Below are positions 853 through 21,248 of a stretch of 64,000 bases of DNA, piece by piece. Position numbers and translations under genes: made by a program. Every line of letters begins with the position of its first letter. The first letter of the stretch is position 1. This stretch comes from an uncultured Bradymonadales bacterium. GTDB taxonomy: Bacteria; Myxococcota_A; Bradymonadia; Bradymonadales; Bradymonadaceae. The notes below the pieces were generated by a model, which saw nothing but the letters and a program-made list of their open reading frames with translations, did not search any database and had not been told where the DNA came from. The DNA lies in the NCBI GenBank assembly GCA_964394615.1, contig CAYMYJ010000012.1, positions 68,223 through 132,222 of the forward strand, in the 5' to 3' direction.

Positions 853-944
853 GGCTGAGGGAAGGCACGATTGGGCGTCCCTAACACGGACAGCCTTGAA
901 TTTAATGAGTTACCAAGGCCGTTTCGCCACGTATAGTGCGCGCC

Positions 945-2546: not shown

Positions 2547-2589
2547 AGTCTTCCAGCTGAATAATTTTTTGAGTTTGGAGAAAGAAAGA

Positions 2590-3579: not shown

Positions 3580-3627
3580 GGTGTATTGCGTTGGCGTATT
3601 TATGTGTGCGCCAATGGCGTTGTTGGT

Positions 3628-4371: not shown

Positions 4372-4697
4372 TCTGTCTTGGGTTCCGGAGTCTCGCGCGC
4401 TGAAACGACGTACTTTGTTATGAGTTCGATATCGGCTGCGCTGATCTTTGCGTACTCGGCGCCCATTTCCTGAATCGTGGCAGGCCATTCTGCGGGCGTC
4501 AGCTCAGATGGGGGCGGCAGATTATGGCATCCCGAGCACTGGTTCACAAAAATGCGTCGCCCCTCCGTGAGTTCCGCCAGTGTGGCGGTTGGCCAGCGAT
4601 TCTGGGCGATTTCGAGCTGCGCGGGCGTGGGTTCGGGCACCATTGTCGCACAGGCCGTCAACCCGATCAGCAGCATTACGATTGCCATGGATTTCAT
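4368..4697 (-). CDS. Small mono-haem c-type cytochrome lipoprotein
   Basis: Start at MKSMAIVMLLIGLTACATM (lipobox LTAC). Single CSGCH haem-binding motif, ~109 aa. Sits 2 bp downstream of the minus-strand OMP gene. Confidence 0.6.
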   Translation of the reverse strand: MKSMAIVMLLIGLTACATMVPEPTPAQLEIAQNRWPTATLAELTEGRRIFVNQCSGCHNLPPPSELTPAEWPATIQEMGAEYAKISAADIELITKYVVSARETPEPKTD

Positions 4698-4699
4698 CT

Positions 4700-5479
4700 T
4701 CAGATCTCGAATGAAAAAAGTAGTCGAGCACTGACGGCTTCGTTGTGGTCCAAATCCGTACCGGACCCCACGCCTTCCTTCGAAAGGGCAGGGAGTTGCG
4801 GAAGCACCGAAAACGCCATCCACCACCCCTTGGCTGCATAGGCTACTGTGGGGCCAATCCAAAGCGCGGAATACTCAAGATCCTCATATTCAGGCAGCGC
4901 ACTCTGGTTGCGGGCCTCGATGCCCAACGAGAAATTCCTTGAGACGAAATAAGCGGCACCCACGACAACGGAAAGCTCAAGTTCGTCTTCACCGTCCTGG
5001 CCGAGGCCCATTTTGTGTTCGCCGATGAGATTCGCCGCGAGCAGAACGTTTCCGATTCTCTTGTCGAAGAGCAATTTTGCTTCGAATTTCAGTTCGTCGG
5101 TCGCAGCTCCGACTTCGCCATAGAGGGCGAAACCAAACGCGTCGGCCACGGGGTCGCTCAGGCGCAGCTTCCATTCGTTTGCCACACCGCTGTAACGAAA
5201 CACCGACGCATTAACACCGGGTTCGGTCTCGGCCGTAATGGCTCCGAAGTTCAGGTAGAATGCGGTCTGGAGGTTCTCGGTGACGCCGACTTCGAACTCA
5301 AGCTTGTGGTCGAATCGAGCGTAGTAGTTGTCGCGGCCTAATCGCGCTGTCGTCCAAACTTCGATTTCTCGTTCATTCACGGGAAGCACGCCAGTTTGGT
5401 AGGCGTAGGTGAAGTTGCGGCCGTTGGCTGAAGCTGATGTGGCAACCAGAAGCAGCAGGGCGGTCAAAATGAGTGTCAT
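4700..5479 (-). CDS. Outer-membrane beta-barrel protein (hypothetical)
   Basis: Internal Met start at MTLILTALLLLVATSASA (signal peptide). Alternating hydrophobic beta pattern, C-terminal ...LLFSFEI, ~259 aa. Confidence 0.55.
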   Translation of the reverse strand: MTLILTALLLLVATSASANGRNFTYAYQTGVLPVNEREIEVWTTARLGRDNYYARFDHKLEFEVGVTENLQTAFYLNFGAITAETEPGVNASVFRYSGVANEWKLRLSDPVADAFGFALYGEVGAATDELKFEAKLLFDKRIGNVLLAANLIGEHKMGLGQDGEDELELSVVVGAAYFVSRNFSLGIEARNQSALPEYEDLEYSALWIGPTVAYAAKGWWMAFSVLPQLPALSKEGVGSGTDLDHNEAVSARLLFSFEI

Positions 5480-5652
5480 TTCTTTTTGTGCGAGCAAGTG
5501 GGTCCTTGTGTGATTTTGAGAATCAGTATCATTTTCATTTGGGGTGTCAAGGCGTTTTGTGACGATCTGAAAAAGCCTGAAGGTTGATTCAGCCTCCTTG
5601 GCGGGAAGTTCCGGGTGTTCTACCGTGCCTTCATTCAAAGAATGGAGGACAG

Positions 5653-6525
5653 ATGGAAGCAGGTTGGATTCAAGCAGATGACGGCTACGCGTTGAGCGTG
5701 GAACTCGGCAAAATCGTGTGTAAGAACGCGAAGGGCAACGTGCTCAAGTCCGTGCCATCCAAGCTCAAAAGCTCGGAGCCCTACGAGCAACTTCGACTCG
5801 CCCTGGAGTGGCTTTCGGAGCACGACCGACAATGCGCAGAAACGGTTGATGCCTGGATGTTGCGGTCTTTGTCCGTGCCGCGTGCCATCCTTGAAAACGT
5901 ATGGCGGGATGCCGGCTGGCGAACCCATTTGGAGCACACGATCGTCGCACCGGAAGGATCCACGGATGAATCCGAGATGGGCTTTTTTCTGGGTGTCGAT
6001 TCCGAAAAAGGCGTGGGCCTTGTGAACATCGACGGCGAGACCATCTGGCTTTCGATCGACGCGGTTCAATTGCCTCATCCTGTCTTGATTCCTGAACTCG
6101 ATGATTTCCGCGAGTTGGCGGCAGAACTCGACTTCAAGCAGGGAATCCAGCAGCTTTTTCGTGAAGTTCACGTGAAGCCGTCCGAATTCGATGAAAATGC
6201 GACCAGTATTTCGACCTTTGCCGACGGGAAATTCGACCAACTAAATTTTGCGTTGGGTCGTTGCCGAACGCTTGGGTACCCCGTGCGAGGTGGGTTTGCG
6301 TGTTGCCCAGTGTTCGAAAAAGGTGCCTACGCCGAAGCTCGGTTCTGGATTGGCTCTGAGGACCCATTTTACGAGTCCTACACAGGGGAGTTGATTTGGG
6401 TTGATACCCGCGAACGACAGATTCCGATTGCCAATGTCGGGGCTGTGGCGTTCTCAGAAGGGATGCGCATGGCGAGCGGCATCTATGCCTCGAGATCGAA
6501 AGAGGAAACGGAAGAAAAAGATTGA
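5653..6525 (+). CDS. Hypothetical 291-aa cytoplasmic protein; leader gene of the giant-paralog operon
   Basis: Internal Met of ORF 5584..6525 (MEAGWIQADDGYALSVE...) with AGGAGG-like RBS (aatGGAGGacag ATG). Its stop lies 8 nt before the ATG of the first giant gene. A degenerate copy of its promoter and first ~17 codons recurs at 16444-16530. Confidence 0.6.
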   Translation: MEAGWIQADDGYALSVELGKIVCKNAKGNVLKSVPSKLKSSEPYEQLRLALEWLSEHDRQCAETVDAWMLRSLSVPRAILENVWRDAGWRTHLEHTIVAPEGSTDESEMGFFLGVDSEKGVGLVNIDGETIWLSIDAVQLPHPVLIPELDDFRELAAELDFKQGIQQLFREVHVKPSEFDENATSISTFADGKFDQLNFALGRCRTLGYPVRGGFACCPVFEKGAYAEARFWIGSEDPFYESYTGELIWVDTRERQIPIANVGAVAFSEGMRMASGIYASRSKEETEEKD

Positions 6526-6533
6526 GGGGATTT

Positions 6534-9500
6534 ATGGACGCGACGAACGCTCAGCTTCGGGTCGGTGGTTTTGTTTTGCCCGATGTCCAGGTCTCGGCCG
6601 ACATCCCAGTGGACATTGTGGACGCGCGGGCGTTTGTTCACCCGGGTCTTCCTGGACGTGAAATCGTGCGTCTAACACCTCGCGCGCTGGCCTTGGGCGA
6701 AGACGCGGCCATGGATACTCTGGGTTTTGCGCTGCAAAACGTCTCGACGGGGATTGCGATCGCCCAACAGAAGTCACTGGGCTTTCCGAATTGGGTCTTG
6801 GTGCACGCCCCGAAGGACGCCGGGCAGGCCTTGGCAGTTGCGCGCAAGTTCCGAAAAGAATCTCGCAAGGCGTCTGCAAAACCAGGTGCCGCGAAATCAA
6901 CTTTTGATGCGCTGATTGCCGACGTTTCCGAGTCCACCCCACACTTTTTGCCCACGCTATGCGAAGAAATGGGGCGAGTGTTCATGGAGACGGGAAATAC
7001 GTCCTACGCGGCGATGTTTTTCGGGAAGGCCCGCGATTCGGAGCAAAAATACGCTCTGGAAATTGATGAAGAACGTCGTCGCGCGGTATTTTTGGAGTTC
7101 ACGCTCGCTGGCGCAGTGACAGGCAAGTCGATGACCGAATACGCCAAGGATTTGGCGCGTCGCTACGACGACTCGACGGCCTACGATTTTTGGGTCGATA
7201 TTTGTGTTCGACGCACGCTGGGTGGCAATCCGCCGACGTCGGCGATGTTTAAGGACTTGAAGCGGTTATCAAAGGCAGCGGGCTTGAAGCCAGAGGTCGG
7301 CGAGGACGCCGTGTTATCCCAAATTTGGCTTTCTCCGTCGCTAGGCCGCGCGCCGGCCTCGGTTTGGAAAGACCTGCGTGCAGCGTTTGTACGTCTCGCA
7401 AAGGTAGAAAAAGACCTGCCGACCCACCTGCTTGGGGTGTTTCCACACGCGCTTCGCTCGGAAGATGGATTTGGCGATTTCTGGTTCGACTTGCTTCAGG
7501 AATTAGGGGCGATTGGGGTGCTGGAAGGCCGAAAGAATGGCGGGATTGCGCGATGGTTTTCCGCTTATATCGCAGGCTCTAGGTCCTCATCTTGGTATGG
7601 CCGCCAACGCTTTCCCGAGGCCGGTTTTGCCCTCCTGGCTCGGATCGCCAAACCTCTAATTAGCGAACAAATGCCGGTCGTGATTGGGGGGGACGGTTGG
7701 GGCGAAGATGCTGACCTCGATTTGCTCGATTACATGCTGGAGTTGGGCATCTTGGTCGACCCGGGCAAGGCCTCGTTTGATCTTAATCAATGGATGCAGG
7801 CACCCGAGGAATCCACGGTCTATTTGCGGGATCTATCATTCGTTGCAGCGCACGCGAGCTTTGGCACGCGGCTTGATGAGGCCGTGTCTAGCGTCATCGA
7901 CGACCAAGAGTTTCACGACGCAGCCCACGGGAAAGCCGGATTGGGGCAGGCGCGCGAACGCTGGTTGATGGGGAAGCTTGCTGCCTTGCCGACCGGCTCG
8001 GTGGCGGCCTTTGGTCGTGTTGTTTCGGACCTCATCGATGCCACAAATGCCTCGACTTTTTTAGAATTTCCAGTCGTTTGGGATGCACTTCAGAACCTGG
8101 ATTTGGTTGCTCCTCTGCATGCGACTTTGAAACGCGGGTTTTTGGGGGAATTCGATTGGCCAGAGGCACGGAAAGCCGCATCAGAACTGGCGATCGGTGA
8201 GGAGGAAGATTCAGTATCGGGCGTGTTTCCAAATCTTGTTCTGTATGATCAGAAGCGCGCGATCGTCATTAATGGCCAAGAACGCGTCTTTGAACACGAT
8301 TTTAAACTGAAAAAAGGCGACGAAGTTCAGGATTTACGTTTCGTGGACGGACAGCTTTGGGTGAATCTTTACGACGACGATTACGACCGTGTTTCTTATT
8401 GGAGTGGCAATCCGAAAAAGCGCTTCGAAGGCCAATACATGTCGTACGGGACGGATTTCGCGGTGCATCGTGCCGATGGTTCGGTCGTTGAGGGCAAACG
8501 CGCGTATCGGGCCGGTGAGGAGACGATTCCTTTACTTGATAATTTCTGGAGCGACGGGGAGACGTTTTGGGCAACCAAGTCGTGGGATGATCCGAGAGTT
8601 TATGAATTTGACCCGGAGACGGGCGCAGACGGGCGAGCGTCGCTGCCCAAAGTTATCGAAGATGTTCTGGAGGATGGATGGGCACTTCAAGTTCATTCAT
8701 CGAAGGTTTATCCAGTGCCGCCGACTTCCCTCTACGGTGCCGTTGACGGCGTGTATTTTAAGGCCGTCTTTAAAAAAGATGACGAGTACCTGACCAAGAC
8801 ACCGCTGGGCCAAGCGCCGAAGTCGGTGTCGTCGTTGATTCGTATGCCAGGCGGCGAGATTGTTGAATTGGACAGTGATTTCGCAATCCTGGCCTTGGAC
8901 GGAGCGCTCCTAGATGCGTCAGAGGCGCTGCCTGGACTGCCAATGAGTTTCGAGTGTTTTCATCATTTTCAAGTCACGGATGAGCGCGCGTCGTCGATTC
9001 TGAGAAATATCGAGAATGCCGCTGTTTCTTCGTTGTTGGCGGCTGCAATTCAAGCCTCTCCAACCAAAGCGATTTTGCCCGAAAAATGGATGATGGGGGC
9101 GACCTTGCCGCTTATGGATGTCACTAAAAACATCTTCGGTGATTCGCCTCTTGAGCCTGCTCTGGTGCGTCTGGTCGAGTCCTACGTCGTTCATATTGCC
9201 TCGTTAGCTGGACATATTCGTGGCGCCGATCCGCGATTTGCCGTCAGTGCTGAGAATTCGATTCCAGACTCTGAGGTTTGGGCGAGTTTTGAGAGCGTGA
9301 CCAGTGGTGGAGATTATTGTTTCGACAATGAAACATACGACGACGAGCGGGAGCTCAGCACGGGGATCATTGCCCTGGCCGAGTTTTTTAAAAACGGAAT
9401 TAAACCAGCAATTTTTGCCAACTATTCTTGCGATTTCTCGTGGGTTTTTCGCCATCCGAAAGTACTGGCTTGGGTGGCATGTGGACCTTGGATTTCGGGG

Positions 9501-11189
9501 TCACGAGAGGCATTGCTGAAATTCATCGATGCCGTGGCAGACGCGGGGCTTTTTGAGCTTGGCGATAAGATGATGATGTTTGAGTCCTCGCAAAAGAGCT
9601 GGGTGAAACACGGAATCGCGCTCGAGACACGAGCGTTTTTTGTTGAACACGAATCGACACGTTTTTACGGAAAATGTGGCGAGTACGAAGATGAAACCTA
9701 CTCGATTTTGGCCTACAGCACGGCCAAAATGACCACGCCCGCAGGCGTTAAGGCCACAGATACGAAGACCGGCGTCTCGTGGTCGGCCGAGGCGGCCAAG
9801 AGGTTCGTCGAACTCAGCACTGAGAATGGCCCTTACGTCCCGACGCGTGAGGCCGCCGAAACGATCGCGGATTTGACCGGTCTGTCTGTGGCTGAGGCTT
9901 CGATGCTTTGGGCGATGCTGCCCAATGTGAATGAGTGGTACGGCCCTGTGATGGACACCGAGTTGCGCAAGTCGTTCAAGCTGAAGGCCGCTGAACTGAA
10001 CCTCGCCCGGGAGTCGCTGAAAGAAATCTCGGGTGAGAAGCGTTGCGCGGTGTATGCCGATGCGTTGCCGGACGATCTGGCGGAGCCTTGGGCCGCGCCG
10101 CAGGAACTTGCCAAACGGCTTGCGGCCTCATGGAACCAACATGTCGGCAAACGGCAAGCCCTTCCCGAAGACCTTTTATTGGCGCTGCAAAAAGAGATTT
10201 CGGTCGACAACGCACGGACGTCTTTGTTGAACCTCTATTCGGTGCCGGCCTTCAAGGTCGGTGGGGAAATTGTTTACGATTCGGACGATAAAAACCTGGT
10301 CTTCGAGATGGACGATGGTGTGCCTGACTCCGATTTAATCACCGAGAGCCTGCATCTTTTGCCCTATCTTTTCTACAATTTACCGGTCGGCGATCCGTCG
10401 CGGCAGAAAATTTCGGACTATTATCAGGCCCTCGCAAAGACTGTATTTGCGGCGGATTCGCTCCTGCCCACGTCTACCGACTTGGAGTGGATTGACGATA
10501 AAAAGAAATCGGCAGCGATGATGGCCAAGCTTGGTGCGAATAAGACAAAAAAGGGAGTGTCTTATTACGATGACGGATTTGTGGTTTTCCTGCTTGGCGA
10601 TTGGGGGCTTGAGGCTGCGATTCGTCCCGCTCAGCTGATTGCTGGCAAGACGAGTCCCTATGTTGTGGCCGACAATCCCGAAGCTCAAATTCTTCGGGCA
10701 TTTTCGAGTATGAAGAGCTTAGTCGATCGTCTGCAGGGGTCGCCGCTTTCTGCCGGCGAATACGAAGCAAACCCGGCGCATTCCAGTCTGGAGACGGTCG
10801 CGCAGGTCAAAAAGGAGCTCGGCGTCAGCGAAGATGCAGCGGTGGCTTTTCTGCAAACGTTGGCGATGCCCAATCCTTCCACAAAACAAATTCGACTCTG
10901 GAACGGCTGGAGTGCAGCGACCTACAAAAAGGCGTTTGCACCCTTGCTGGAGAGAGGCGTTTTAATTGAAGCAAAACGCGCCAGATCGGGCCGTTCGTTC
11001 TTTTTGGACGGTCCGTGGTTGGAGTTTCGCGCACCGCATATTCCCATGGAAGCATGGAAGGTTCCGATGATGCCGCTGCTGGCCTCGGACGAATGTCAGG
11101 TCAATTATCCTATTTCTGCACCCCACGAATTATTTGAACAGGCGTGGACGCGATGGCGTTCGGGCGACAAACCTGGATTCACGAAATGA
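6534..11189 (+). CDS. Giant paralog A (1552 aa), uncharacterised alpha-helical protein; possibly YehI/MolR-like (DUF4132) by genomic-context analogy
   Basis: ATG at 6534 with GAGGGG RBS (track ORF begins on TTG at 6522). N-terminus MDATNAQLRVGGFVLPD...DIPVDIVDARAFVHPGLPGREIVRLTP and C-terminus ...ELFEQAWTRWRSGDKPGFTK are shared with paralogs B and C. No Walker A, signal peptide or TM segment was found. Confidence 0.85.
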   Translation: MDATNAQLRVGGFVLPDVQVSADIPVDIVDARAFVHPGLPGREIVRLTPRALALGEDAAMDTLGFALQNVSTGIAIAQQKSLGFPNWVLVHAPKDAGQALAVARKFRKESRKASAKPGAAKSTFDALIADVSESTPHFLPTLCEEMGRVFMETGNTSYAAMFFGKARDSEQKYALEIDEERRRAVFLEFTLAGAVTGKSMTEYAKDLARRYDDSTAYDFWVDICVRRTLGGNPPTSAMFKDLKRLSKAAGLKPEVGEDAVLSQIWLSPSLGRAPASVWKDLRAAFVRLAKVEKDLPTHLLGVFPHALRSEDGFGDFWFDLLQELGAIGVLEGRKNGGIARWFSAYIAGSRSSSWYGRQRFPEAGFALLARIAKPLISEQMPVVIGGDGWGEDADLDLLDYMLELGILVDPGKASFDLNQWMQAPEESTVYLRDLSFVAAHASFGTRLDEAVSSVIDDQEFHDAAHGKAGLGQARERWLMGKLAALPTGSVAAFGRVVSDLIDATNASTFLEFPVVWDALQNLDLVAPLHATLKRGFLGEFDWPEARKAASELAIGEEEDSVSGVFPNLVLYDQKRAIVINGQERVFEHDFKLKKGDEVQDLRFVDGQLWVNLYDDDYDRVSYWSGNPKKRFEGQYMSYGTDFAVHRADGSVVEGKRAYRAGEETIPLLDNFWSDGETFWATKSWDDPRVYEFDPETGADGRASLPKVIEDVLEDGWALQVHSSKVYPVPPTSLYGAVDGVYFKAVFKKDDEYLTKTPLGQAPKSVSSLIRMPGGEIVELDSDFAILALDGALLDASEALPGLPMSFECFHHFQVTDERASSILRNIENAAVSSLLAAAIQASPTKAILPEKWMMGATLPLMDVTKNIFGDSPLEPALVRLVESYVVHIASLAGHIRGADPRFAVSAENSIPDSEVWASFESVTSGGDYCFDNETYDDERELSTGIIALAEFFKNGIKPAIFANYSCDFSWVFRHPKVLAWVACGPWISGSREALLKFIDAVADAGLFELGDKMMMFESSQKSWVKHGIALETRAFFVEHESTRFYGKCGEYEDETYSILAYSTAKMTTPAGVKATDTKTGVSWSAEAAKRFVELSTENGPYVPTREAAETIADLTGLSVAEASMLWAMLPNVNEWYGPVMDTELRKSFKLKAAELNLARESLKEISGEKRCAVYADALPDDLAEPWAAPQELAKRLAASWNQHVGKRQALPEDLLLALQKEISVDNARTSLLNLYSVPAFKVGGEIVYDSDDKNLVFEMDDGVPDSDLITESLHLLPYLFYNLPVGDPSRQKISDYYQALAKTVFAADSLLPTSTDLEWIDDKKKSAAMMAKLGANKTKKGVSYYDDGFVVFLLGDWGLEAAIRPAQLIAGKTSPYVVADNPEAQILRAFSSMKSLVDRLQGSPLSAGEYEANPAHSSLETVAQVKKELGVSEDAAVAFLQTLAMPNPSTKQIRLWNGWSAATYKKAFAPLLERGVLIEAKRARSGRSFFLDGPWLEFRAPHIPMEAWKVPMMPLLASDECQVNYPISAPHELFEQAWTRWRSGDKPGFTK

Positions 11190-14100
11190 GCACCAAGATG
11201 AATACCGAACAGCTTAATTCGACGCTTCGCGCGGGCGGCTATCTTCTGCCTGAGACGAAGGCGCCAACAGACGTTCCCGTCGATACCATTGATGCGCGGA
11301 TTTTCACGCATCCTGGGATTCCGGATCGAGAGATCGTTCGGTTGACCCCGTCGAATCTGGCCGTGGGTGAAGATGCTGCGATGGATATCCTTGGATTCGC
11401 CCCTGTGGCGAGTTCCGCGAAGATTGCGCTACGCATGCGTCAGGCCCTTGGATTTCCTGAGTGGGTTTTGGTCCACGACCCCAAGAATGCTGCGTCAGCC
11501 TTGGCGATTTCACGTGATCTTAAAAAAGAAGCACGTCGGGCCAAGTCTAAGCCAGGCAACGCAAAAATCGTGTTCGACGAGATGGGCAAAAATATTGCCA
11601 AAAAGACGCCTCACTTTTTGCCGCCGTTCTACGAAGAGGTCGCCCGCGCCTTCGTCGAATCCGGCAATACGACGTATGCGGCGACCTACTTTGGCAAAGC
11701 TCGGGAGGCCGAGCAGACCTACGCGCTTGACGTGGACGAGAACCGTCGTCGCGATGCGTTTGTGGAATTTGCTCTTTCGGGTGCGCTCACAAATAAGGTG
11801 ATGTCCGAGTACGCCAAGGACCTCTCGAAACGGTACGGCGCCGAAAAAGCCTACGAGTATTTCTCGGACCTTTGCATTCGTCGCACGCTTGGCGGAACCC
11901 CGCCTCATTCGCAGATGGTCACTGAGCTTCGTCGATTGGCCAAGGCTGCGGATAAAAAACAATCCGAGGAAGATGCGAATTTTATTTCGGAGATTTGGGA
12001 AGCGCCTTCGCTGACACGATCGGCCGCAAAATTTTGGGAAACCTACGCCAAGACCTTTGTCCAATTGGCTAAAAAAGAGCCCAGAATTCGCGGGCGTTTG
12101 CTGAACACCTTTCCGGTTCCCTCGGGCAAAGCGGATGATTTTAAGGCGTTTTGGGTTGGTTTCCTAAACGATACTGGTGCTGATCAAGCGTTGACCAAAC
12201 CTGAGGCCGAGGTAGATGGCGCGCTCAAACCCGAGGGTTCCGCTGCGCAATGGATCGCCAAATTCGTCGCTCATCGGATGTCGTCTGGTTATAATTATTA
12301 CCGGAAACCCACGACACCCGACGCGGGTTTTGACTTGATTCGCCGCATGGCTCCGCGCCTTAAGGCAGATGGGATTGAGTTCGAATTTTCGGGTTCGGGT
12401 TGGCAGCGGGTCGTCGACATCGATGTTCTGGATTTGCTCTTGGAACTTGGTGTTCCGGTCAAGGTGCCGGACGCGATCGACTTTAGTACATGGGCCACGC
12501 CCATGGAGGGGATGAGCGAACGCTTGCGTGACCTCAAATACCTTGGGGCTGATACCAGGTTCGATGAAATCGTCGATCGCGCAGTGGGTAGCGTTTTTGG
12601 AAATGCCGAATTCGAGGCCGCCGCGCGTGGGAAATCTGGGTTGAAACGCGCTCGCGAAAAATGGCTGGAACGCCGTGCTGATGAAATTGGACTTGGTGCG
12701 GCCCCGTCGTTCAAAGAAAACGTGACGCAATTGAGAAACGCCACATCGGCTGCGACCTTTAAGGAGTTTCCCAAAGCTTGGACAAGGCTTCAAGACCTTG
12801 AATTGGTAGCACCTTTTACCCGCACGTTGAATGGTGGGTTCTTGGACGAATACCAGTGGGTCGAAGCCAAAACTGCCTACGACGAATTGAGGGGGCCAAA
12901 ACACGACGTCGAAGTCAAAGTGGCCGGCGTGTTTCCGTATTTGATCCTGTACTCGCCAACCAAAGGCATTGTGATCGGGCCCAAGGGCCGTGTCGTCGAA
13001 CACGACTTTAAGTTGCCGAAGGGGCGGACGATCAACCAAATAGCGTACGCGGGCGGTCAGTTGCTGGTGGTGTATTACGACCAGAATTGGAGTCAAGTGG
13101 CCTATTGGAGTGGGAAGCCGAACCACACGTTCGAGGGGGGATATATCTGGTCTGGAGTCGTGAGTGTTGAGCGCGAAGACCATTCGATGGTGGCTGGCAA
13201 GGTGGCGTTTCGTGCAGGCGATGAGGTCATGCCGAAATACAACCATCTTCTAAGCGATGGTGAGTCATTCTGGAGCCGCACCGGTTACGGGGATGATTCA
13301 CGTCTCACTGAATTCGATCCAAATACGGGGAAAGACGGCCGTACTTCGTTGCCGGCATTCTTCGAGGATTCGCTGCGCCCCGATATGAAGCTCATGCAAT
13401 ACTTTTGCACTCTGTATCCGCTTCCGTCGGAACTCAAAAACTCGCCGCTTGGCACCAAGGACGGGCTTTACGGGCAAATGGTGTTTCAGTCCAACGGGGA
13501 GTTTTTGACGGTGAGTCCATTGGGAGAGCAGGCCGGTCAAGTGGAAGCGATGATTCGTTTGCCCGGAACCGATCGTGTGTTGTCGTTGTCCTCGGGTTTC
13601 CGTCTGGCGGATTCATCCACCATATTGGACGCGCGCTCGACGCTGGGTGGCCTGCCGATCGGAATTAATTTCGCGCATTTTCTGACAATATCTGACGAAG
13701 CCGGCTCTAAAAAGTTGCGTTCGCTCAAAGAGGACGCCAGTGCTGCCATTATTGCGGCCGCGATTATTTCGAGAACTCACGACGACGACGTACCCAGCGC
13801 ATTGGCCGCTAAATGGTTGGGCGAAATCGCCGCCAAGGCAGGGAAGTCATCGAAATCGTTGGCGGCTTTTGCCGCCGCAGGAAAGGGCTCGTTAGAGGGG
13901 GACAAGGCGTCGAAGTCCGCGCTTGCCGGGCTAATGGCGGCCGGCAAAGACTTCTTGTTGGGCAAAAGTAAGACTCCGCAGGCTCAGTCGTTGTTCGGGA
14001 TTATTGATGAAGTGGTCGGCTGCAACGCGGATTTGCGTGCCGCCATCGCTGTTTTAGCCAACGAATACGCCGATGCGTTGGTGGCGCTGGCACAGCATAT

Positions 14101-16081
14101 CGAAGCCTCGGATCCGGCGCGGGCTGGCGCGGTCGGAAGCGCGATCGTGGATTCTGCTCTTTGGGGAAATTTTGCGGGAATCGCATCGGGCTCCGATTAT
14201 GATTTCTACAATTACTCTTGGGGTGAACAGGCGGATCTGGCTCGGTATCTTCATCAGTTCGCTGGGTTTCTGAAATCCGGAGAAATTCCCAAGGACTTTT
14301 CCTGGACAACAACCGACATGACTCTCGTCATGAAGGCGCCCGCCAGTATTGCATGGTTGGCGGCTTCGCCCGGTCTTACAGGCGATCGCGAGGTCTTGTT
14401 GAGTTTCCTTGAGGTGCTCGCGGCTTCTGGTCTTTTGGATTTGTCTGGGAAGTTCAGGCTCTTTACGTCTCCACGCGAAGGTTGGGTTCCGCTCGGTGTT
14501 GCAAATGAAAGCAGAAAGTCATTTCTGCTGGAGCATGAGGGACACAAATTCATGGGGCGCTCAAATTATTATGGGAACGAGGAGTTTCAGGTCTTGGAGT
14601 ACGTCGAGAAAGGCGACTTCAAGGTGCCAAAGGGAGTCGTGGTCCAGACCGAATCGTCGACGCAGACCTGGTCAGGGGAGGCCGCCAAGCGCGTCGTGGA
14701 GCTTGTCAACGAACGTGGCCCTTACGAAATAAATATCGATATTATTTCTTATTTAGCCGAAAAAATCGGAATTTCTAACGCCGAGGCGGGTCTCTTGTGG
14801 GCAACGATGCCCAACATGAATTCGTACGAAAAGAACTTCTTGCCCAAAGAGATTCGCGAGGCGATGGGGGCCAAGGTGGCCGAGGCAGCCATCGCGCGGG
14901 ACGGGTTGAAGAACCTTTCGGTCTACAAGAAATTGGCCGTATATTCTTCGGGTTTCCCCGAGAACGCTGCCGATTTGTGGGACGCGCCCGAAAAAGTCGC
15001 AGATCAATTGGCGGTGGCCTGGAACACTCATTTTGGTCAGCGGGTTCAGTTGCCCGAGGCTTTGTTGGCGGAAATTAAGAAGAATCTGAATATTTGGGAT
15101 CCGCGTCCACACGTAAAAGCCATCTTGAGTCCGAAGGATTCGATCTACAGCGCGGTCCCAGACTTCGAACTTAAGGTCATCGACGGCAAGTACTTGGAAA
15201 TGATCGCCAAGGACGACACATTTAATGGCAGTGATAACGTTCGGTCATTTTTGAAGATTTCCAGGTATTTGTCGCTTAACGCGCCGGTGGGTGATGAGGT
15301 TCGAAAGAGCCTTCCAGCAGCATGGGAGGTCTGGAAGAAGACCCTTGCTCATCCAAAATTTCAGGTTTCTGGGAATTCCCCTTACGAACCGGATTACGAC
15401 AAGTTGAAAGAGACTTTGGCCAAGATCGGCACCAACAAGTCGTTGAAGGGCTTTGAATACTACCAAGACGAGGTGGTGACCCTTTCAACCTCGCGGTGGA
15501 GCCTCGACATGATGGTCAATGTGGCGCCCGTGCTCGCGGGTAAAACCAGTCCGCATTTTGCGGGCGTGAAAGAGCTACCCGAGATAAACGAGATTTTTTC
15601 GGATCGTTTTGCTGCGCTGATGAACAACATTTCTAACCCCACGGTCGGCGAAGGAAATTACGAAACCAATGCGGAGCTCTCGGTGCCGAAATTGGTGGCT
15701 GAGGTCTCAAAATCGTTGGGTGTTTCTTCGTCGGCTGCCAACGCCTTCTTGCAGATTCTGGCGCTGCCAAACCCCACGACTTCGAATGTGAAGACGTGGA
15801 ATGGATGGACTACCGGAGCGTATAAGAAGGCGCTGGCGGAGTTGGTTGACAAGGGCGTGGTTATGGAGGCTAAACGGTCGCGCGCGGGCCGTACGTTCTT
15901 CCTGGACGGCCCATGGTTGGATTTGAAGGCACCACATCTGCCCGTCGAAGGGTGGAAGAAACCATTCTATGGTGTCGAATTCAACGAATCCTTTTCGTTG
16001 GAGCTTCCGTTGGAGTCCGTTCCTGCGCTTTTTCAACGCGCCTGGGACCGCTGGAAATCGGGCGACAAACCCAAATTCTAG
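11186..16081 (+). CDS. Giant paralog B (1631 aa), divergent copy with a unique Ala/Lys/Ser-rich insert
   Basis: The ATG at 11186 overlaps the TGA of paralog A (ATGA), implying translational coupling. The N-terminal (MSTKMNTEQLNSTLRAGGYLLPE...) and C-terminal (...RAWDRWKSGDKPKF) regions are collinear with A and C. Confidence 0.85.
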   Translation: MSTKMNTEQLNSTLRAGGYLLPETKAPTDVPVDTIDARIFTHPGIPDREIVRLTPSNLAVGEDAAMDILGFAPVASSAKIALRMRQALGFPEWVLVHDPKNAASALAISRDLKKEARRAKSKPGNAKIVFDEMGKNIAKKTPHFLPPFYEEVARAFVESGNTTYAATYFGKAREAEQTYALDVDENRRRDAFVEFALSGALTNKVMSEYAKDLSKRYGAEKAYEYFSDLCIRRTLGGTPPHSQMVTELRRLAKAADKKQSEEDANFISEIWEAPSLTRSAAKFWETYAKTFVQLAKKEPRIRGRLLNTFPVPSGKADDFKAFWVGFLNDTGADQALTKPEAEVDGALKPEGSAAQWIAKFVAHRMSSGYNYYRKPTTPDAGFDLIRRMAPRLKADGIEFEFSGSGWQRVVDIDVLDLLLELGVPVKVPDAIDFSTWATPMEGMSERLRDLKYLGADTRFDEIVDRAVGSVFGNAEFEAAARGKSGLKRAREKWLERRADEIGLGAAPSFKENVTQLRNATSAATFKEFPKAWTRLQDLELVAPFTRTLNGGFLDEYQWVEAKTAYDELRGPKHDVEVKVAGVFPYLILYSPTKGIVIGPKGRVVEHDFKLPKGRTINQIAYAGGQLLVVYYDQNWSQVAYWSGKPNHTFEGGYIWSGVVSVEREDHSMVAGKVAFRAGDEVMPKYNHLLSDGESFWSRTGYGDDSRLTEFDPNTGKDGRTSLPAFFEDSLRPDMKLMQYFCTLYPLPSELKNSPLGTKDGLYGQMVFQSNGEFLTVSPLGEQAGQVEAMIRLPGTDRVLSLSSGFRLADSSTILDARSTLGGLPIGINFAHFLTISDEAGSKKLRSLKEDASAAIIAAAIISRTHDDDVPSALAAKWLGEIAAKAGKSSKSLAAFAAAGKGSLEGDKASKSALAGLMAAGKDFLLGKSKTPQAQSLFGIIDEVVGCNADLRAAIAVLANEYADALVALAQHIEASDPARAGAVGSAIVDSALWGNFAGIASGSDYDFYNYSWGEQADLARYLHQFAGFLKSGEIPKDFSWTTTDMTLVMKAPASIAWLAASPGLTGDREVLLSFLEVLAASGLLDLSGKFRLFTSPREGWVPLGVANESRKSFLLEHEGHKFMGRSNYYGNEEFQVLEYVEKGDFKVPKGVVVQTESSTQTWSGEAAKRVVELVNERGPYEINIDIISYLAEKIGISNAEAGLLWATMPNMNSYEKNFLPKEIREAMGAKVAEAAIARDGLKNLSVYKKLAVYSSGFPENAADLWDAPEKVADQLAVAWNTHFGQRVQLPEALLAEIKKNLNIWDPRPHVKAILSPKDSIYSAVPDFELKVIDGKYLEMIAKDDTFNGSDNVRSFLKISRYLSLNAPVGDEVRKSLPAAWEVWKKTLAHPKFQVSGNSPYEPDYDKLKETLAKIGTNKSLKGFEYYQDEVVTLSTSRWSLDMMVNVAPVLAGKTSPHFAGVKELPEINEIFSDRFAALMNNISNPTVGEGNYETNAELSVPKLVAEVSKSLGVSSSAANAFLQILALPNPTTSNVKTWNGWTTGAYKKALAELVDKGVVMEAKRSRAGRTFFLDGPWLDLKAPHLPVEGWKKPFYGVEFNESFSLELPLESVPALFQRAWDRWKSGDKPKF

Positions 16082-16443
16082 GCCGTGAGCCGTGAACGTT
16101 TGGTTCGCGATTGTGTGTGCCTGATAATCCATGATGGCTTGCTTTGGCGCCGGACCTCGTGCCGACTTCGACTTCCTGTTGTCTGGCGAGCTCTGACGGC
16201 ATTCGCTGGGGAGCAGCAGGGCCTAAGTCGTTAGCGAACAGGATTAATCGCTCTGGTGGGGGGCCTCTTTTTGTTCGATGAAGGGCTTGTGTTGTGTTGC
16301 GATGGCGTATGGTGAGGTGCGCCATCGGCGTTGTTGTTGGTGCTTTCGAAACGGGAATTAATTGAGGGGAAACGTCTCAGACGTGGTGTGAACAAGCCGG
16401 ATTGGCGTGTATGAGAGGTGTCTGACCTTGGCGAGAAGACTGG

Positions 16444-16530
16444 TGTGCTCTACCGTGCGTTCATTCAATGAACGGAGCGCGATTGAAGGCAGGTTGGAAC
16501 CAAGCGGATGATGGCTACGCGTTGAGCGTG
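16444..16530 (+). repeat. Degenerate duplicate of 5617-5703 (5'UTR plus first ~17 codons of the leader gene) with the ATG lost
   Basis: 5617-5703 (gtgttctaccgtgccttcattcaaagaatggaggacagATGgaagcaggttggattcaagcagatgacggctacgcgttgagcgtgg) matches 16444-16530 (gtgctctaccgtgcgttcattcaatgaacggagcgcgattgaaggcaggttggaaccaagcggatgatggctacgcgttgagcgtgg) at about 80%. The remnant reads ...EAGWNQADDGYALSVGAA... with no start codon and an early stop. Confidence 0.6.
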
Positions 16531-16595
16531 GGAGCTGCAGCTACGCATCGAGAACGAATGAAGAATTTGAAGAGAAAGACTAGGTAGGGGACTGT

Positions 16596-19500
16596 ATGGA
16601 TGCGATGAATGCTCAACTTCGGGTCGGTGGCTATGTGTTGCCGGGCGCCCAAATCTCAGAAGATATTCCGGTGGATACGTTGGACGCGCGGACCTTTTCG
16701 CATGCGGGTTTGCCATCACGTGAAGTCGTTCGGCTGACGCCAAGCACGCTTGCCCAGGGCGAAGACGCGGCCATGGAAACACTGGGCTTTTCGTTGCAAG
16801 ACGTTCAGGGCGAGTTGGCTGTTGTTCGACAGAGGTCGCTTGGTTTTCCGAGCTGGGTCTTGGTGAACATGCCGTCGGATGCTGCAGAGGCTCTTTCGGT
16901 TGCCCGGGTTTTCCGCCGCAATGCCCGTCAGGCACTGATAAAGCCTGGAGCCGCGAAGTCGGCATTCGACGCACAGATCGCCGAGGTTTCAGAGTTCAAG
17001 CCTCATTTTTTGCCCACGCTTTGTGAGGAAATGGGCAGGGTGTTTCTTGCGAGCGGCAACAGCTCGCATGCAGCCATGTTTTTTGGAAAGGCTCGAGAGG
17101 TAGAACAGAAATTCGGCTTGGATGTTGACGAAGAGCGTCGTCGCTCGGTTTTCCTAGAGTTCACGCTGGCCGGTGCCGTAAGCGCCAAAGCGATGACCGA
17201 GTATTCCAAGGATTTGGCTCATCGTCATGGCGACAAGGAAGCCTACGACTCTTGGGCAGATCTTTTAGTGCGGCGCACACTGGGTGGGAATCCGCTGACG
17301 CCTTCGATGTTTAAGGATTTGAAGCGACTCGCTAAATCGGCTGGGTTGAAGCCCAAAGACGCCGAAGACGAGGTGCTCGGAAAAATTTGGCATTCGTCTT
17401 CGTTGGTTCGTGCTGCTGCGTCGGTCTGGGTCGCGATTGGTCCTGCTTTATCGCGCCTTTCCAAGACCGAGGCAGACCTGCCAAATCACCTGCTGAACCT
17501 TTTTCCGCATGCTCTGAGATCTGAAGATTCGTTTGGCCAGTTTTGGTTCGAGTTGCTTCACGACGTTGGTGCGATTGCCAAATTGAAGACGCGAAAATCT
17601 GGCGGGATTGCAAATTGGTTTTCCACCTTTATTTCCGCGTGCAGAACCACGTCTTGGGATGACCGAAAGTGCTTCCCTGAAGCGGGTTTCCCGGTGTTGA
17701 CCGAGTGCGCTGAGATCCTTGTTGCAGACCAAGTTTCGGTCGTCATCGGTGGCGACGAGTGGTGCGACGATGCCGATCTAGACCTCCTGGATCACCTTTT
17801 GGAACTTGGGATTCCCGTGGACGCAGGCACAGCCAAGTTTGAGATGATGCACTGGATGAATGCACCTGCAGACTCGGAGGTTTATCAGCGAAGTCTCGAT
17901 TTCGTTTCGGATCACCCGATATTTGGGCCTCGCCTAGATCTAGCCGTCGGTGCCAAAATTGCTGATCAAGACTTCTTGGCAGCGGCGCAGGGCAAAGCAG
18001 GGCTCACTCGCTCACGCAAACGATGGTTGCGGCGTCGATTGGACGATCTTTCATCAGGGTCCGTCGCTGCTTTTGGTAAAGCTGTAAAAGACCTCACGGC
18101 GGCCACGGATGGGTCGACGTTTCTGGAGTTCCCAGACCTTTGGGAGAGCATTCAAAAATTGGATTTGGCGGCCCCGTTTTACGCGACATTAAAGCGCGGG
18201 TTCTTAGGAGAGTTTGACTGGCCTACTGCACGCAAGGCCGCGGAAGAGCTTGGTCTTGGTAAGGGTGTTGCCGTAGAGGTTGCCGGCGTTTTCCCCAATT
18301 CGGTTTTTTATAACGAAGAGCGGGCCTTGGTGGTCAATGGCGAATCCGTCATTCTTGACCACGCCATAGCTCTGACCGAGGACGACGAGATTCAGGGCAT
18401 GCGTTTCGTTGGTGGGCAATTGCTCATCACGTTTATGGACGACGACTACGATCGCCTTGGTTACTGGAGTGGAACCCCAGAACATAGATTCGACGCCGGT
18501 GCTTTGAATTGTAATCCAAGTTGGTCGGTGTACCGCGATGACGGTTCAGTGGTCGAAGGTGCCCGGGCGTTTCAAGTGGGTGAAGAGTCGCCTCCTTCCA
18601 TCAGCGCCTTTTGGAGCGATGGAAAGACGTTTTGGCGCCGGGCCGGCAATGACTCGACCATGTATGAGTTTGATCCGGACACGGGGGAGCTCGGCCGCGC
18701 ATCGCTGCCTAAGGCGATCGAAGACCATCTTGAAGAGGGATGGGAACTTCAAACGAAACTCTCTTGCGTTTACCCGACGCCGGATTCGTCTTTGCAGGGC
18801 ACTTACGAAGGAGTCTATTTTAAGGCGGTCTTTAAAAAGGAAGACGAGTATTTGACCAAGACCCCGCTTGGGGTTGTGTCAGGTTCGGTCCCATCGCTTT
18901 TGCCATTGCGGGGCGGTGAACTCGCCGTTCTCGCAAAGTTCTATGAGCTTCATCAGCCCGATGGAACGGTGCTCGATGCGTTGATGCCGATCCCAACGGT
19001 TTATTTGTCGCCTGCGTCGTTTGCTCACTTTTCGGTCGTGGATGAGGCCGCCTCGCTCAAGCTGCGGAAGATAGAAAAAAACCAGGCCGCCGCCGTTTTG
19101 GCCCACGCCATTCAAGCGTCTGAAAACGCGACCGTATTTCGTGAAACCTGGGCAGCAGGCGTTCCCGATGTGACGCCCCATGGTATCCAGGCGGTGATCG
19201 GTGAGTCCGAGCTCGTCCGAGGGGTCGAGCGAGTTGCGGACTCTTACCTTCAACACTTGACTCAATTTGCAACGCATATTGCCGAATCCAATCCTTCAGT
19301 GGCTGTGAGTTTCAAAGGGCCGATTTGCGACCCCAACGTTTGGGGGAATTTTGAATGTGTGACGAGTGATGGCGAATATTCTTTCGATAACGTGCTTTAC
19401 GGGGGGGCCGAACGCGATCTGAATGTGGCCATCGGATCGCTGGTTGAGTTCTTCAAGGAAGGAATTAAACCGGACGTTTCCGACGATTATTCTTTCGATT

Positions 19501-21248
19501 TTTCTTGGGCTTTTCGCTTTCCAAAAGTGTTGTCTTGGGTAGCCGTTGCACCTTGGATTTCGGACTCCAGGCAGGAACTTGTGGAGTGCATTGACGCGGT
19601 TGCAGATTCGGGGCTTTTTGAGCTCGCCGACAACATGACGATGTTCAAAACATCGCAGGCTAGTTGGGTGCAACACGGCGTTAAGCCGCGAACAGGCACG
19701 TTTTTTATCGAGTTTGAATCGACTCGTATTTATGGATATTGCGGCAGATACGAGTGCAAAGTCTATTCGATATTGGCCTACAGCACCGACAATATGACCC
19801 TGCCTGCAGGAGTGACAGCGACCGACCTGATGGAAGGCGTTCCTTGGTCATCCGGGACGGCAAAAGAATTTGTGAAACTCTTTGGGGAGCACGGCCCTGC
19901 ATTGGCGTCGCGTGAGGCTGCGCAGACGATTGCCGAGGCAACAGGTTTGTCGGTCGCTGAAGCTGCCATGGTTTGGGCGATGTTCCCAAATATTCACGCT
20001 TCGACTGGACCGATCATGGAGGCCGAACTTCGCAACGAATTCGAATTGAAGGCGGCCGAGCTCAAAGCCGCTCGGGAGTCTTTGCGTGACGTGCCTGGCG
20101 AAAAGCGATGTGCTGTACTTATGGATGCATTTCCTGAAGACGTGGAAGACTTTTGGAACGCTCCGCTTGAGGTTGCGCGCGGTCTTGCTGAGGCGTGGAA
20201 CAAACATGTCGGTAAGCGCGTCGCGATACCTGACGATGTCGCTCAGGCGATGCAAAAGGACCTGCCGCTTGATAATCCCCGAGCTGCGTTGCTCAGGTTT
20301 TATACGCCGACGTTCACAGTCGGTGGGACCGTGGCGCACGAAACTGAAGAGCGTCTCTTTTTCGAGATGAAGGATGGCGTCCCGAGCCCTGACGCGCTTG
20401 TCGAAAGCCTGCATGTTTTGCCCTATTTGTTCTACACCTTGCCGGTGGGCCATCCGACGCGTCAGAAGATTTCTAAATATTATTCAGAGCTTAAAAAAGT
20501 CATTTTTGATTCTGACTTTTTGTTGCCTACGTCCACCCAGTTTGATCACGTCGGTTATCCAAGCGCGGTGACCGCCAGATTGGGAAGGCTTGGCGCCGAC
20601 CAAACGTTCAATGGGGTTACCTATTTCGACGATGGATTTTTGGTGCTTGTGCCCGCCCAATGGGGACTCGCGGCCGCGATCCGGCCAGCTCAATTGCTGG
20701 CAGGCAAAACAAGTGAGCACATCGTTCCGAAAAACCGGGAGGCTGTCGCTCTTCAGGTTTTTGTTCAGATGGACGGCTTGGTTGAACGCGCCGAAAAATC
20801 AGCGATTCCCGACGGGGGATATGAGGCCAATCCTCTACATTCTGCCCCTGAAACCGTGGCTCAGGTGCAAAAGGAGTTGGACGTCTCTGAGGATTCAGCG
20901 ATCGCGTTTTTGCAGACTTTGGCAATGCCAAATCCGTCGACCAAACAGGTCAGGCAATGGAACGGATGGAGCGCTTCCGCCTATAAAAAGGCATTTGAGC
21001 CGTTGGTGGAAAAAGGACTGCTGATCGACGCTAAGCGGGCGAGGACAGGGCGGACCTTCTTTTTGGATGGGCCATGGCTGGAGTTCAAATCGCCCCATTT
21101 CCCGATGGAAGCCTGGAAGGAGTCGCTGATGCCTCAGATGGCCGCTGACGTATGTCAGGTGAATTATCCAGTTTCTGCACCGCACGAGCTATTTGAACAG
21201 GCGTGGACGCGATGGAGTTCGGGCGACAAACCTGGATTCACGAAATGA
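16596..21248 (+). CDS. Giant paralog C (1550 aa), closest to paralog A
   Basis: ATG at 16596. The N-terminus MDAMNAQLRVGGYVLPG... and C-terminus ...ELFEQAWTRWSSGDKPGFTK are near-identical to paralog A. A 515-bp intergenic region with promoter-like remnant precedes it. Confidence 0.85.
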   Translation: MDAMNAQLRVGGYVLPGAQISEDIPVDTLDARTFSHAGLPSREVVRLTPSTLAQGEDAAMETLGFSLQDVQGELAVVRQRSLGFPSWVLVNMPSDAAEALSVARVFRRNARQALIKPGAAKSAFDAQIAEVSEFKPHFLPTLCEEMGRVFLASGNSSHAAMFFGKAREVEQKFGLDVDEERRRSVFLEFTLAGAVSAKAMTEYSKDLAHRHGDKEAYDSWADLLVRRTLGGNPLTPSMFKDLKRLAKSAGLKPKDAEDEVLGKIWHSSSLVRAAASVWVAIGPALSRLSKTEADLPNHLLNLFPHALRSEDSFGQFWFELLHDVGAIAKLKTRKSGGIANWFSTFISACRTTSWDDRKCFPEAGFPVLTECAEILVADQVSVVIGGDEWCDDADLDLLDHLLELGIPVDAGTAKFEMMHWMNAPADSEVYQRSLDFVSDHPIFGPRLDLAVGAKIADQDFLAAAQGKAGLTRSRKRWLRRRLDDLSSGSVAAFGKAVKDLTAATDGSTFLEFPDLWESIQKLDLAAPFYATLKRGFLGEFDWPTARKAAEELGLGKGVAVEVAGVFPNSVFYNEERALVVNGESVILDHAIALTEDDEIQGMRFVGGQLLITFMDDDYDRLGYWSGTPEHRFDAGALNCNPSWSVYRDDGSVVEGARAFQVGEESPPSISAFWSDGKTFWRRAGNDSTMYEFDPDTGELGRASLPKAIEDHLEEGWELQTKLSCVYPTPDSSLQGTYEGVYFKAVFKKEDEYLTKTPLGVVSGSVPSLLPLRGGELAVLAKFYELHQPDGTVLDALMPIPTVYLSPASFAHFSVVDEAASLKLRKIEKNQAAAVLAHAIQASENATVFRETWAAGVPDVTPHGIQAVIGESELVRGVERVADSYLQHLTQFATHIAESNPSVAVSFKGPICDPNVWGNFECVTSDGEYSFDNVLYGGAERDLNVAIGSLVEFFKEGIKPDVSDDYSFDFSWAFRFPKVLSWVAVAPWISDSRQELVECIDAVADSGLFELADNMTMFKTSQASWVQHGVKPRTGTFFIEFESTRIYGYCGRYECKVYSILAYSTDNMTLPAGVTATDLMEGVPWSSGTAKEFVKLFGEHGPALASREAAQTIAEATGLSVAEAAMVWAMFPNIHASTGPIMEAELRNEFELKAAELKAARESLRDVPGEKRCAVLMDAFPEDVEDFWNAPLEVARGLAEAWNKHVGKRVAIPDDVAQAMQKDLPLDNPRAALLRFYTPTFTVGGTVAHETEERLFFEMKDGVPSPDALVESLHVLPYLFYTLPVGHPTRQKISKYYSELKKVIFDSDFLLPTSTQFDHVGYPSAVTARLGRLGADQTFNGVTYFDDGFLVLVPAQWGLAAAIRPAQLLAGKTSEHIVPKNREAVALQVFVQMDGLVERAEKSAIPDGGYEANPLHSAPETVAQVQKELDVSEDSAIAFLQTLAMPNPSTKQVRQWNGWSASAYKKAFEPLVEKGLLIDAKRARTGRTFFLDGPWLEFKSPHFPMEAWKESLMPQMAADVCQVNYPVSAPHELFEQAWTRWSSGDKPGFTK

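Follow-up and report, generated by a model that had tools for sequence, protein, structure and literature searches.

Giant proteins of an unnamed bacterial family and their probable place in a DUF4132-MoxR-VWA gene cassette

The subject of this analysis is a tandem array of three genes for giant proteins (giants A, B and C) and their leader gene, located in a 64,000-nucleotide stretch of DNA from an uncultured Bradymonadales bacterium (GenBank assembly GCA_964394615.1, contig CAYMYJ010000012.1, positions 68,223 to 132,222; hereafter the window). Judged from gene order in other genomes, the giants very probably represent the fifth core component of a cassette that encodes a DUF4132 protein, a giant, a MoxR ATPase, a DUF5682/VWA protein and a SWIM-motif protein, and this cassette varies hardly at all among Actinomycetes, Myxococcota, Bradymonadales and the few further lineages that have it. 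The window carries it in two separate halves: the DUF4132-giant half, expanded to three giants, and, 18 kb off on the other strand, a single operon with the MoxR, DUF5682-VWA and SWIM genes (the engine operon). The genes concerned are as follows.

5653-6525, plus strand: leader gene, 290 amino acids, its ATG preceded by GGAGGA
6534-11189, plus strand: giant A, 1551 amino acids
11186-16081, plus strand: giant B, 1631 amino acids from the ATG, or 1645 amino acids from an upstream GTG
16596-21248, plus strand: giant C, 1550 amino acids, with giant A as its nearest paralog
44607-45770, minus strand: YehL-subfamily MoxR AAA+ ATPase, 387 amino acids (Pfam AAA_5, E 1e-36), the presumed engine
41116-44607, minus strand: fusion of DUF5682 and a CoxE-type VWA domain, 1163 amino acids (Pfam DUF5682, E 4e-157; VWA_CoxE, E 6e-54)
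39347-41119, minus strand: SWIM-motif protein in the YehQ position, 590 amino acids, with CSCLLSPRCLH aligned to the Pfam-SWIM segment of YehQ

For analysis of gene order, 79 loci from other genomes, taken with 10-kb flanks, were searched by tblastn with the five window proteins. Of the 77 loci that could be tested, 75 had DUF4132 as the gene immediately upstream of the giant; in the other two a B-type giant stood behind another giant, an arrangement also seen in the window. In 64 of 71 loci MoxR came directly downstream of the giant, and was itself followed by the DUF5682-VWA gene and then by the SWIM fifth gene. The initial annotation of this DNA had tied the giants to MoxR/VWA/SWIM genes; with the engine adjacent in these 64 loci the tie held, and broad occurrence of giants away from an engine was not what was found. 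In the Yinghuangia and Myxococcota metagenome-assembled genome (MAG) loci the order was DUF4132, giant, MoxR AAA_5, DUF5682 plus VWA_CoxE and a protein of 570-660 amino acids, all abutting, with the leader either a DUF4132 protein of 283 amino acids or a WGR plus DUF4132 protein of 394 amino acids. Leader and giant were coupled through an 8-nt gap or a gene overlap. In one metagenomic sequence the two were fused into a single protein of 2031 amino acids, with MoxR encoded next downstream. Clustering of 742 flanking open reading frames (ORFs) gave no sixth conserved neighbour and no effector, so that the cassette is self-contained within variable surroundings and the parts list of the system comes to five genes with no sixth partner. 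In two loci (L048 and L051) MoxR was present downstream, and tblastn gave no match for DUF5682-VWA or SWIM in the remaining flank of about 9 kb. The leader of the second of these, an Alphaproteobacteria-labelled MAG (HK-STAS-MYXO-39), apparently carries three tandem WGR repeats before DUF4132 (8260-9051). Three Myxococcota/Kofleriaceae MAG loci (L025, L027 and L033) share, in the flank upstream of the cassette (1-8331) and on the opposite strand, an ORF of more than 2700 amino acids that is cut by the locus end.

Departures from this order bear on whether the three giants of the window could be independent of the distant engine operon, acting perhaps as structural proteins that bind DNA, with an association that is historical only. 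The 18 kb and the opposite strands that separate giants and engine in the window would fit such independence, as would two loci (L055 and L077) in which a DUF4132-giant pair has no engine in about 10 kb downstream; in two others (L022 and L049) only about 0.1-0.2 kb follows the pair before the contig edge. Against it stand the near-universal association of giant and engine elsewhere and the intact engine genes of the window. In addition, a Bradymonadales relative with a single giant (L009) retains a convergent engine 1.9 kb away, and Catellatospora sp. NPDC049609, which has an orphan DUF4132-giant pair (L043), carries a full cassette elsewhere (L080). We consider independence from the engine to be highly improbable.

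Additional DUF4132-giant units were seen in several genomes. In L031 and L046 a second DUF4132-giant pair is divergent from a full cassette, and Actinocorallia sp. B10E7 (L021, NZ_JBDPLZ010000016) contains at 3196-24818 the series DUF4132-giant-DUF4132-giant-giant-giant, that is, at least four giants in an array that leaves the fetched stretch; no engine genes were found within 3196-24818. This tandem amplification, in an actinomycete, is independent of the Bradymonadales array. Because L043/L080, L031, L046 and L021 show extra DUF4132-giant units, a scheme of one engine with several clients is proposed, and one engine can coexist with several adaptor-giant units. The split cassettes, orphan pairs, tandem arrays and single fusion can be taken as natural experiments, and they speak for such sharing of an engine among clients.

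Within the cassette, DUF4132 was located in the leader and not in the giants. The leader contains the full domain (Pfam PF13569, E 4.8e-22, domain positions 1-179 of 179 at residues 28-209) and is a stand-alone protein without the WGR extension present in some relatives; 580 relatives were found, and the 120 listed span 285-440 amino acids. Giants A, B and C gave no match to Pfam (threshold for PF13569, E<=0.01), NCBIfam or PADLOC. A Pfam scan of 43 relatives of each giant half gave no shared match, and PF13569 was absent from them at E<=0.05. When giant profiles (A1, A2 and A3) were compared by hhalign with YehI or with a 13-sequence YehI-family profile, the probability returned was 0.1-0.2%. 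The proposal that the giants are DUF4132/YehI-like was accordingly rejected: the initial annotation was right on the engine link and wrong on which protein carries DUF4132. A search with hidden Markov models had been called for; against Pfam, NCBIfam and PADLOC the giants matched no well-characterised family, and giant profiles (full, N-part and C-part) gave no match to PDB sequences.

The giants were further described as free of recognisable catalytic signatures, which agrees with the results: neither a family-conserved P-loop nor an enzyme fold was detected. A P-loop pattern, AGKT, occurs at residue 1366 of A, 1447 of B and 1365 of C and is restricted to these Bradymonadales copies. Missing from the family consensus and with no convincing NTPase fold match, it was set aside as a lineage-specific coincidence; in the same way STAND/NLR-like or other NTPase sensors were rejected for want of a family-conserved P-loop NTPase domain. 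No transmembrane segment was found in the giants (maximum 19-residue hydropathy 1.3-1.6). Secreted polymorphic toxins or surface proteins were also considered and discarded, there being no transmembrane segment, toxin or repeat family and the C-terminus being the best conserved part. A suspected internal helix-turn-helix repeat in the C-part scored 25, where shuffled sequences gave a mean of 23 +/- 4, and was not significant.

The giants belong to an unnamed family of proteins of about 1550-1700 amino acids that has no Pfam model. A word-indexed search with a giant returned 97 homologs, nearly all of 1520-1890 amino acids, from Myxococcota, Bradymonadaceae, Riflebacteria and many Actinomycetes, and the nearest matches were to MAGs of Microvenator and Bradymonadaceae (83-88% identity). 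Among 1.84 billion representatives, the family comprised 933 clusters at 50% identity, 597 of them at E<=1e-30, and at least 593 matches were obtained in the GTDB contigs with one genome per species. Some members carry the RefSeq label 'DNA-binding protein'. The sequences are already public, labelled 'hypothetical' or 'DNA-binding'; a literature search gave no description of the cassette or of the giant family.

The engine operon (45770-39347, minus strand), which had been noted earlier as a MoxR/VWA/SWIM operon, proved to be real by Pfam, BLASTP and SWIM alignment. In BLASTP the window MoxR and E. coli YehL showed 45% identity over 379 amino acids (E 2e-100), and both have the same unusual Walker A motif, GEPGTAKS. 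The only solved structure that the MoxR sequence matched was Midasin; the leader, the SWIM protein, the DUF5682-VWA protein and a YehI profile gave no match to PDB sequences. The 1163-residue protein showed 25% identity to YehM and 37% to YehP by BLASTP and has an intact metal ion-dependent adhesion site (MIDAS) motif, DVSGS, at residue 1005. Its DUF5682 N-terminus contains an invariant signature, G-x-R-H-H...E-x-P ('LIGVRHHSP ... VELPAE', residues 22-51), which is kept from E. coli YehM through all 23 aligned relatives. The signature looks like a site for metal binding or catalysis, and a hidden enzymatic activity of the cassette may reside there. In the 590-residue protein a putative SWIM motif, CxCx5CxH, occupies the YehQ-equivalent position; the Pfam SWIM model itself gave no match. 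The pattern CxCxnCxH was retained in 53 of 53 fifth-gene proteins, and hhalign against YehQ gave E 0.015.

To model the giants, AlphaFold2 was run on giant A in two parts (residues 1-835 and 836-1551), with 60-row alignments built from full-length database proteins. The predicted local distance difference test score (pLDDT) was 91.3 and the predicted template modelling score (pTM) 0.77 for residues 1-835, and 88.2 and 0.85, respectively, for residues 836-1551. The following domains were delimited in the model.

Giant A residues 26-78: small alpha/beta domain, preceding the alpha-solenoid
Giant A residues 86-555 (6789-8198, plus strand): all-helical alpha-solenoid, TPR/Get4/VPS35-like
Giant A residues 568-795 (8235-8918, plus strand): beta-rich, beta-propeller-like domain, from DSSP of the model
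Giant A residues 1419-1491 (10788-11006, plus strand): C-terminal winged helix, comprising a helix-turn-helix and a beta-hairpin wing, among the best-conserved regions of the family

Foldseek searches of the N-part against PDB gave weak propeller matches to acylaminoacyl peptidase, WDR5, PLL lectin, LDLR and Vps18 (E 2e-3 to 5e-2); the placement of these matches on residues 568-795 is our own, as the tool gave no query position. In the C-part, a disordered linker, which is the site of the low-complexity insertion of giant B, is followed by mixed helical and small-sheet modules, and the wing of the winged helix has a conserved basic motif, EAKRARxGRxxFL, with invariant Arg residues. No enzyme fold was found in the models by Foldseek, the only matches being to alpha-solenoid, beta-propeller and winged-helix structures. 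As modelled, the architecture is of scaffold type, with no recognisable enzyme fold. The giants had been predicted to be cytoplasmic and rich in alpha-helix; the absence of transmembrane segments and the mostly helical model agree with this. The giants are not purely helical, as a beta-rich domain of about 230 residues is present.

The array itself was as first described in several respects. The ORF map gave three co-directional, collinear giant paralogs after a leader, with an 8-nt gap between the leader TGA and the start of giant A, and the giant A TGA and giant B ATG overlapping as ATGA at 11186-11189. An alignment of the complete giants A and C gave 59% identity and needed only 5 gaps; A and B are 39% identical, far beyond chance. 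The termini of A and C had been called almost verbatim copies; they are shared, and the wording was too strong, with 72% identity in the first 50 residues and 80% in the last 50. Divergence between A and C is greatest at residues 551-650 and 751-950, which correspond to the beta domain and linker, and the termini are most conserved. Giant B has a low-complexity insertion of about 50 amino acids after the position that matches residue 853 of A. Giants B and C are separated by an intergenic gap of 514 bp, and the features relevant to its origin are listed here.

5596-5652, plus strand: region upstream of the leader (putative promoter / 5' untranslated region), with a second copy upstream of giant C
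16084-16109 and 16300-16327, plus strand: terminator-like hairpins 3' of giant B, pattern matches only, the regional count not being above shuffle expectation
16426-16587, plus strand: decayed second leader, made up of the leader upstream copy, the first approximately 16 codons and C-terminal remnants, with about 260 internal codons gone

By blastn, 5596-5701 (the 57 nt that precede the leader, together with its codons 1-16) is 82% identical to 16426-16531 (E 4e-25). Frame translations of the B-C gap, '..AGWNQADDGYALSV..' and '..SYASRTNEEFEEKD' followed by a stop, match 'AGWIQADDGYALSV' and 'YASRSKEETEEKD' followed by a stop in the leader. As the gap holds both a copy of the leader upstream region and remnants of the leader termini, the duplicated unit was leader plus giant, with later decay of the second leader. 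A mini-ORF of 39 codons (16468-16587) retains the leader N-terminal 'AGWNQADDGYALSV' and stops 8 nt before the giant C ATG, a spacing equal to that between the leader and A; it might be an upstream ORF retained for translational coupling. Together, the copied upstream region and the terminator-like hairpins before C suggest that giant C has its own copy of the upstream control region of the cassette. A sigma-70 scan of 5596-5652 gave no site, promoter function there being inferred, and an Rfam search of the whole window gave no match. The array A-B-C is probably not one operon, and in view of the decayed second leader, the copied upstream region and the hairpins the single 15.6-kb operon proposed at first is doubtful and a single transcript unlikely.

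A neighbour-joining tree had the topology ((A,C),(B, L008 B-like)), where L008 is a Bradymonadaceae MAG, with the single giant of the Bradymonadales relative L009 as outgroup; this places the duplications within Bradymonadales and makes the A/B split older than the divergence from the L008 organism. Giant B is 80% identical to its L008 ortholog, with a ratio of nonsynonymous to synonymous substitution rates (dN/dS) of 0.07 over 1621 codons; for giant A and its L008 ortholog dN/dS was 0.10 (C-terminal 851 codons). In these ortholog comparisons no 150-codon window exceeded 0.14, no hypervariable segment was present, and positive or diversifying selection was not seen. Such values indicate that the paralogs are old, functional and constrained, and the earlier description of the paralogs as diversifying is not supported in the sense of positive selection. 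The alignment of A, B and C that had been recommended did map divergent segments, to the beta domain and linker, and hypervariable segments were not among them.

Conservation differed between the components. When more than 70 loci were compared with the window proteins, identity was 66% for MoxR, 44-51% for DUF4132, 45-47% for DUF5682-VWA, 33-35% for SWIM and 29-32% for the giants. A gradient of this kind, highest for MoxR and lowest for SWIM and giants, would be expected if the engine is conserved and the recognition subunits vary: MoxR is the invariant part, and the giant and the SWIM protein are the variable parts. The window MoxR is about 66% identical (range 62-73%) to both Actinomycetes and Myxococcota homologs (L004-L085), nearly equally for the two; such uniformity is unusual between phyla this distant and implies either extreme constraint or transfer of the cassette between phyla.

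On balance, the reading that we favour, and regard as fairly probable as a whole, is one of scaffold, adaptor and engine, in which a YehL-type MoxR-VWA remodelling machine would have the giants as its rapidly evolving subunits for scaffolding or specificity. The giant would act as a non-catalytic scaffold or recognition subunit, and the DUF4132 protein as a dedicated adaptor that binds it; binding is proposed because of the tight gene coupling, the 2031-residue fusion and the greater conservation of the adaptor relative to the giant. The VWA MIDAS would dock on the giant-DUF4132 pair, and the MoxR hexamer and VWA would spend ATP on loading or unloading this complex or on switching its conformation, as other MoxR-VWA pairs do with their clients. 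Nucleic acid may be the target to which the winged helix, the SWIM motif and, in relatives, WGR guide the complex. The three paralogs of the window would be alternative, subfunctionalised clients of the one engine at 45.8-39.3 kb. The biological output could be defence or threat sensing, or could be chromosome- or stress-related. Several points weigh against this scaffold-engine reading. In the window the 18-kb distance and opposite strands leave co-regulation of giants and engine presumed; the single 2031-residue fusion could be a frameshift artefact; and the invariant DUF5682 motif hints at a catalytic site that a model of scaffold and engine leaves unexplained. With no effector domain, no known defence genes nearby, no phage copies and purifying selection, the genes do not look like typical arms-race defence, and the literature searched held no functional study of DUF4132, DUF5682 or the yeh genes.

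The same components can also be read as an immune or threat-sensing conflict system, with the giants as interchangeable sensors (solenoid and propeller offering ligand surfaces, the winged helix reading DNA), MoxR-VWA as the switch and the array as an expanded repertoire in a predatory bacterium. MoxR-vWA pairs with beta-propeller sensors provide a precedent, threat sensing having been proposed for them and shown in one case (PMC7159879; bioRxiv 10.64898/2026.09.08.750141), and the window MoxR gives a sub-threshold match to bpMoxR. Further support comes from the self-contained nature of the cassette in non-conserved genomic contexts, the independent recurrence of tandem amplification, the fast evolution of giants and SWIM proteins, the concentration of paralog divergence in the propeller and linker region, and hosts rich in multicellular or predatory bacteria. 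The searches for hallmarks of defence point the other way. Pfam and PADLOC found no effector domain in the five cassette proteins (no nuclease, protease, TIR and so on in about 4000 amino acids), and no component had a significant PADLOC match (best E 0.006-0.04). Within the window no defence genes or mobile elements lie nearby; no phage-borne copies of the cassette were found, and among plasmid records only megareplicons of Streptomyces and Embleya had copies. The dN/dS of 0.07-0.10 with no hypervariable window and a giant tree that largely follows taxonomy also speak against a conflict system, and the paper on ternary MoxR-vWA systems (PMC7159879) is silent on SWIM, WGR, DUF4132 and YehL. 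We regard a conflict system as possible but doubtful. The same tentative standing is given to its more specific form, an ATP-driven, nucleic-acid-directed surveillance system with giants as exchangeable sensors, DUF5682 as a cryptic effector, the array as repertoire expansion and E. coli yeh as a compact version.

Strong purifying selection would suit a housekeeping-type assembly or maturation chaperone like CoxD/CoxE, NorQ/NorD, CbbQ/CbbO or RavA/ViaA, in which the giant would be a platform or client of metal-cofactor or complex maturation. The VWA domain is CoxE-type, the MoxR-VWA pairs characterised so far act as maturation or remodelling chaperones (PMC3893208), and the window context is chromosomal and housekeeping in character (MutL, transporters). 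The old name of an E. coli DUF4132 protein, MolR, and one database name, 'Molybdate metabolism regulator', lean in the same direction. Among the 742 flanking ORFs, however, no metalloenzyme or cofactor-biosynthesis gene was conserved beside the cassette; it is not obvious what the winged helix, SWIM and WGR would contribute to cofactor insertion, and patchy distribution with paralog amplification would be unusual for a dedicated maturation factor. We judge a maturation chaperone to be unlikely.

Between the giants and the engine operon, the region 30035-38150 on the plus strand holds a pair of large genes preceded by a 295-residue ORF with no Pfam match. The first of the pair encodes a 723-residue SPFH/Band-7 protein (30915-33086) and the second a 1682-residue protein (33102-38150) in which DUF3686 (described as 'ATPase involved in DNA repair'; E 9e-203) and DUF7902 are accompanied by an AAA domain at the C-terminus. 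PADLOC gave only three marginal matches among the window neighbours (E 4e-4 to 1e-3; LmuB, IetA), all on the DUF3686 protein. Beyond the engine operon, at 48713-50185 on the minus strand, a 490-residue protein with four thrombospondin type-3 repeats (E 8e-39) and DUF3344 is probably a secreted calcium-binding protein unrelated to the giants.

Among known systems, those described by Kaur, Burroughs, Iyer & Aravind 2020 (PMC7159879) and the Esr system (bioRxiv 10.64898/2026.09.08.750141) combine MoxR and vWA, as here, with a large divergent protein; theirs has a beta-propeller-type domain, which the giants may share. Like the window cassette they favour Actinomycetes, Myxococcota and other complex bacteria. 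DUF4132, DUF5682 and SWIM are not part of the systems in PMC7159879. The MoxR subfamily also differs, the window MoxR scoring 22.3 bits for bpMoxR against a cutoff of 27. In addition, the window cassette is without effector, kinase/FHA or VMAP components, and its proteins are cytoplasmic and lack a signal peptide.

An analogy of mechanism only is offered by Midasin/Rea1, a dynein-type AAA_5 ATPase of eukaryotic pre-60S remodelling that acts on the beta-propeller proteins Rsa4 and Ytm1. There, an AAA_5 ATPase with MIDAS/VWA pulls a client composed of a small N-terminal domain and a beta-propeller; its clients have no homology to those of the window.

The closest comparison is with the E. coli K-12 yeh locus, which has the order yehF (a molR WGR fragment), yehH (a pseudogene), yehI (DUF4132 at residues 954-1138), yehK, yehL, yehM, yehP, yehQ. 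As in the window, a YehL-type MoxR, DUF5682 (YehM) and VWA (YehP) occur in the same order, and a DUF4132 protein is encoded immediately upstream; the SWIM protein YehQ comes last, as does its putative counterpart in the window. Leaders of Myxococcota relatives share the combination of WGR and DUF4132 with E. coli, their WGR being 45% identical to YehF. The two differ in that E. coli has no giant, and in that the window has YehM and YehP equivalents fused and no yehK. DUF4132 is in E. coli the C-terminal domain of 1200-residue proteins, the N-terminal 950 residues of which have no detectable homology to the giants; in the window it is a 290-residue stand-alone protein accompanied by a separate protein of about 1550 residues. 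The analogy first drawn with molR-yehI-yehLMPQ therefore holds for the engine (45% identity to YehL, GEPGTAKS, position of the putative SWIM motif) and fails where it equates the giants with YehI. Within the E. coli y-ome, yehI/yehLMPQ has long been a gap, and no function is known for the YehL subfamily, which is one of seven in MoxR. In at least 593 species genomes and 933 clusters at 50% identity this engine is firmly linked with a short DUF4132 adaptor and a giant of about 1600 residues, which opens the whole YehL subfamily to testable hypotheses, namely that the adaptor binds the giant, that MIDAS docks and that the winged helix binds DNA. The giant-containing cassette appears to be a relative of the E. 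coli yehLMPQ/DUF4132 system, with the engine and the DUF4132 module common to both.

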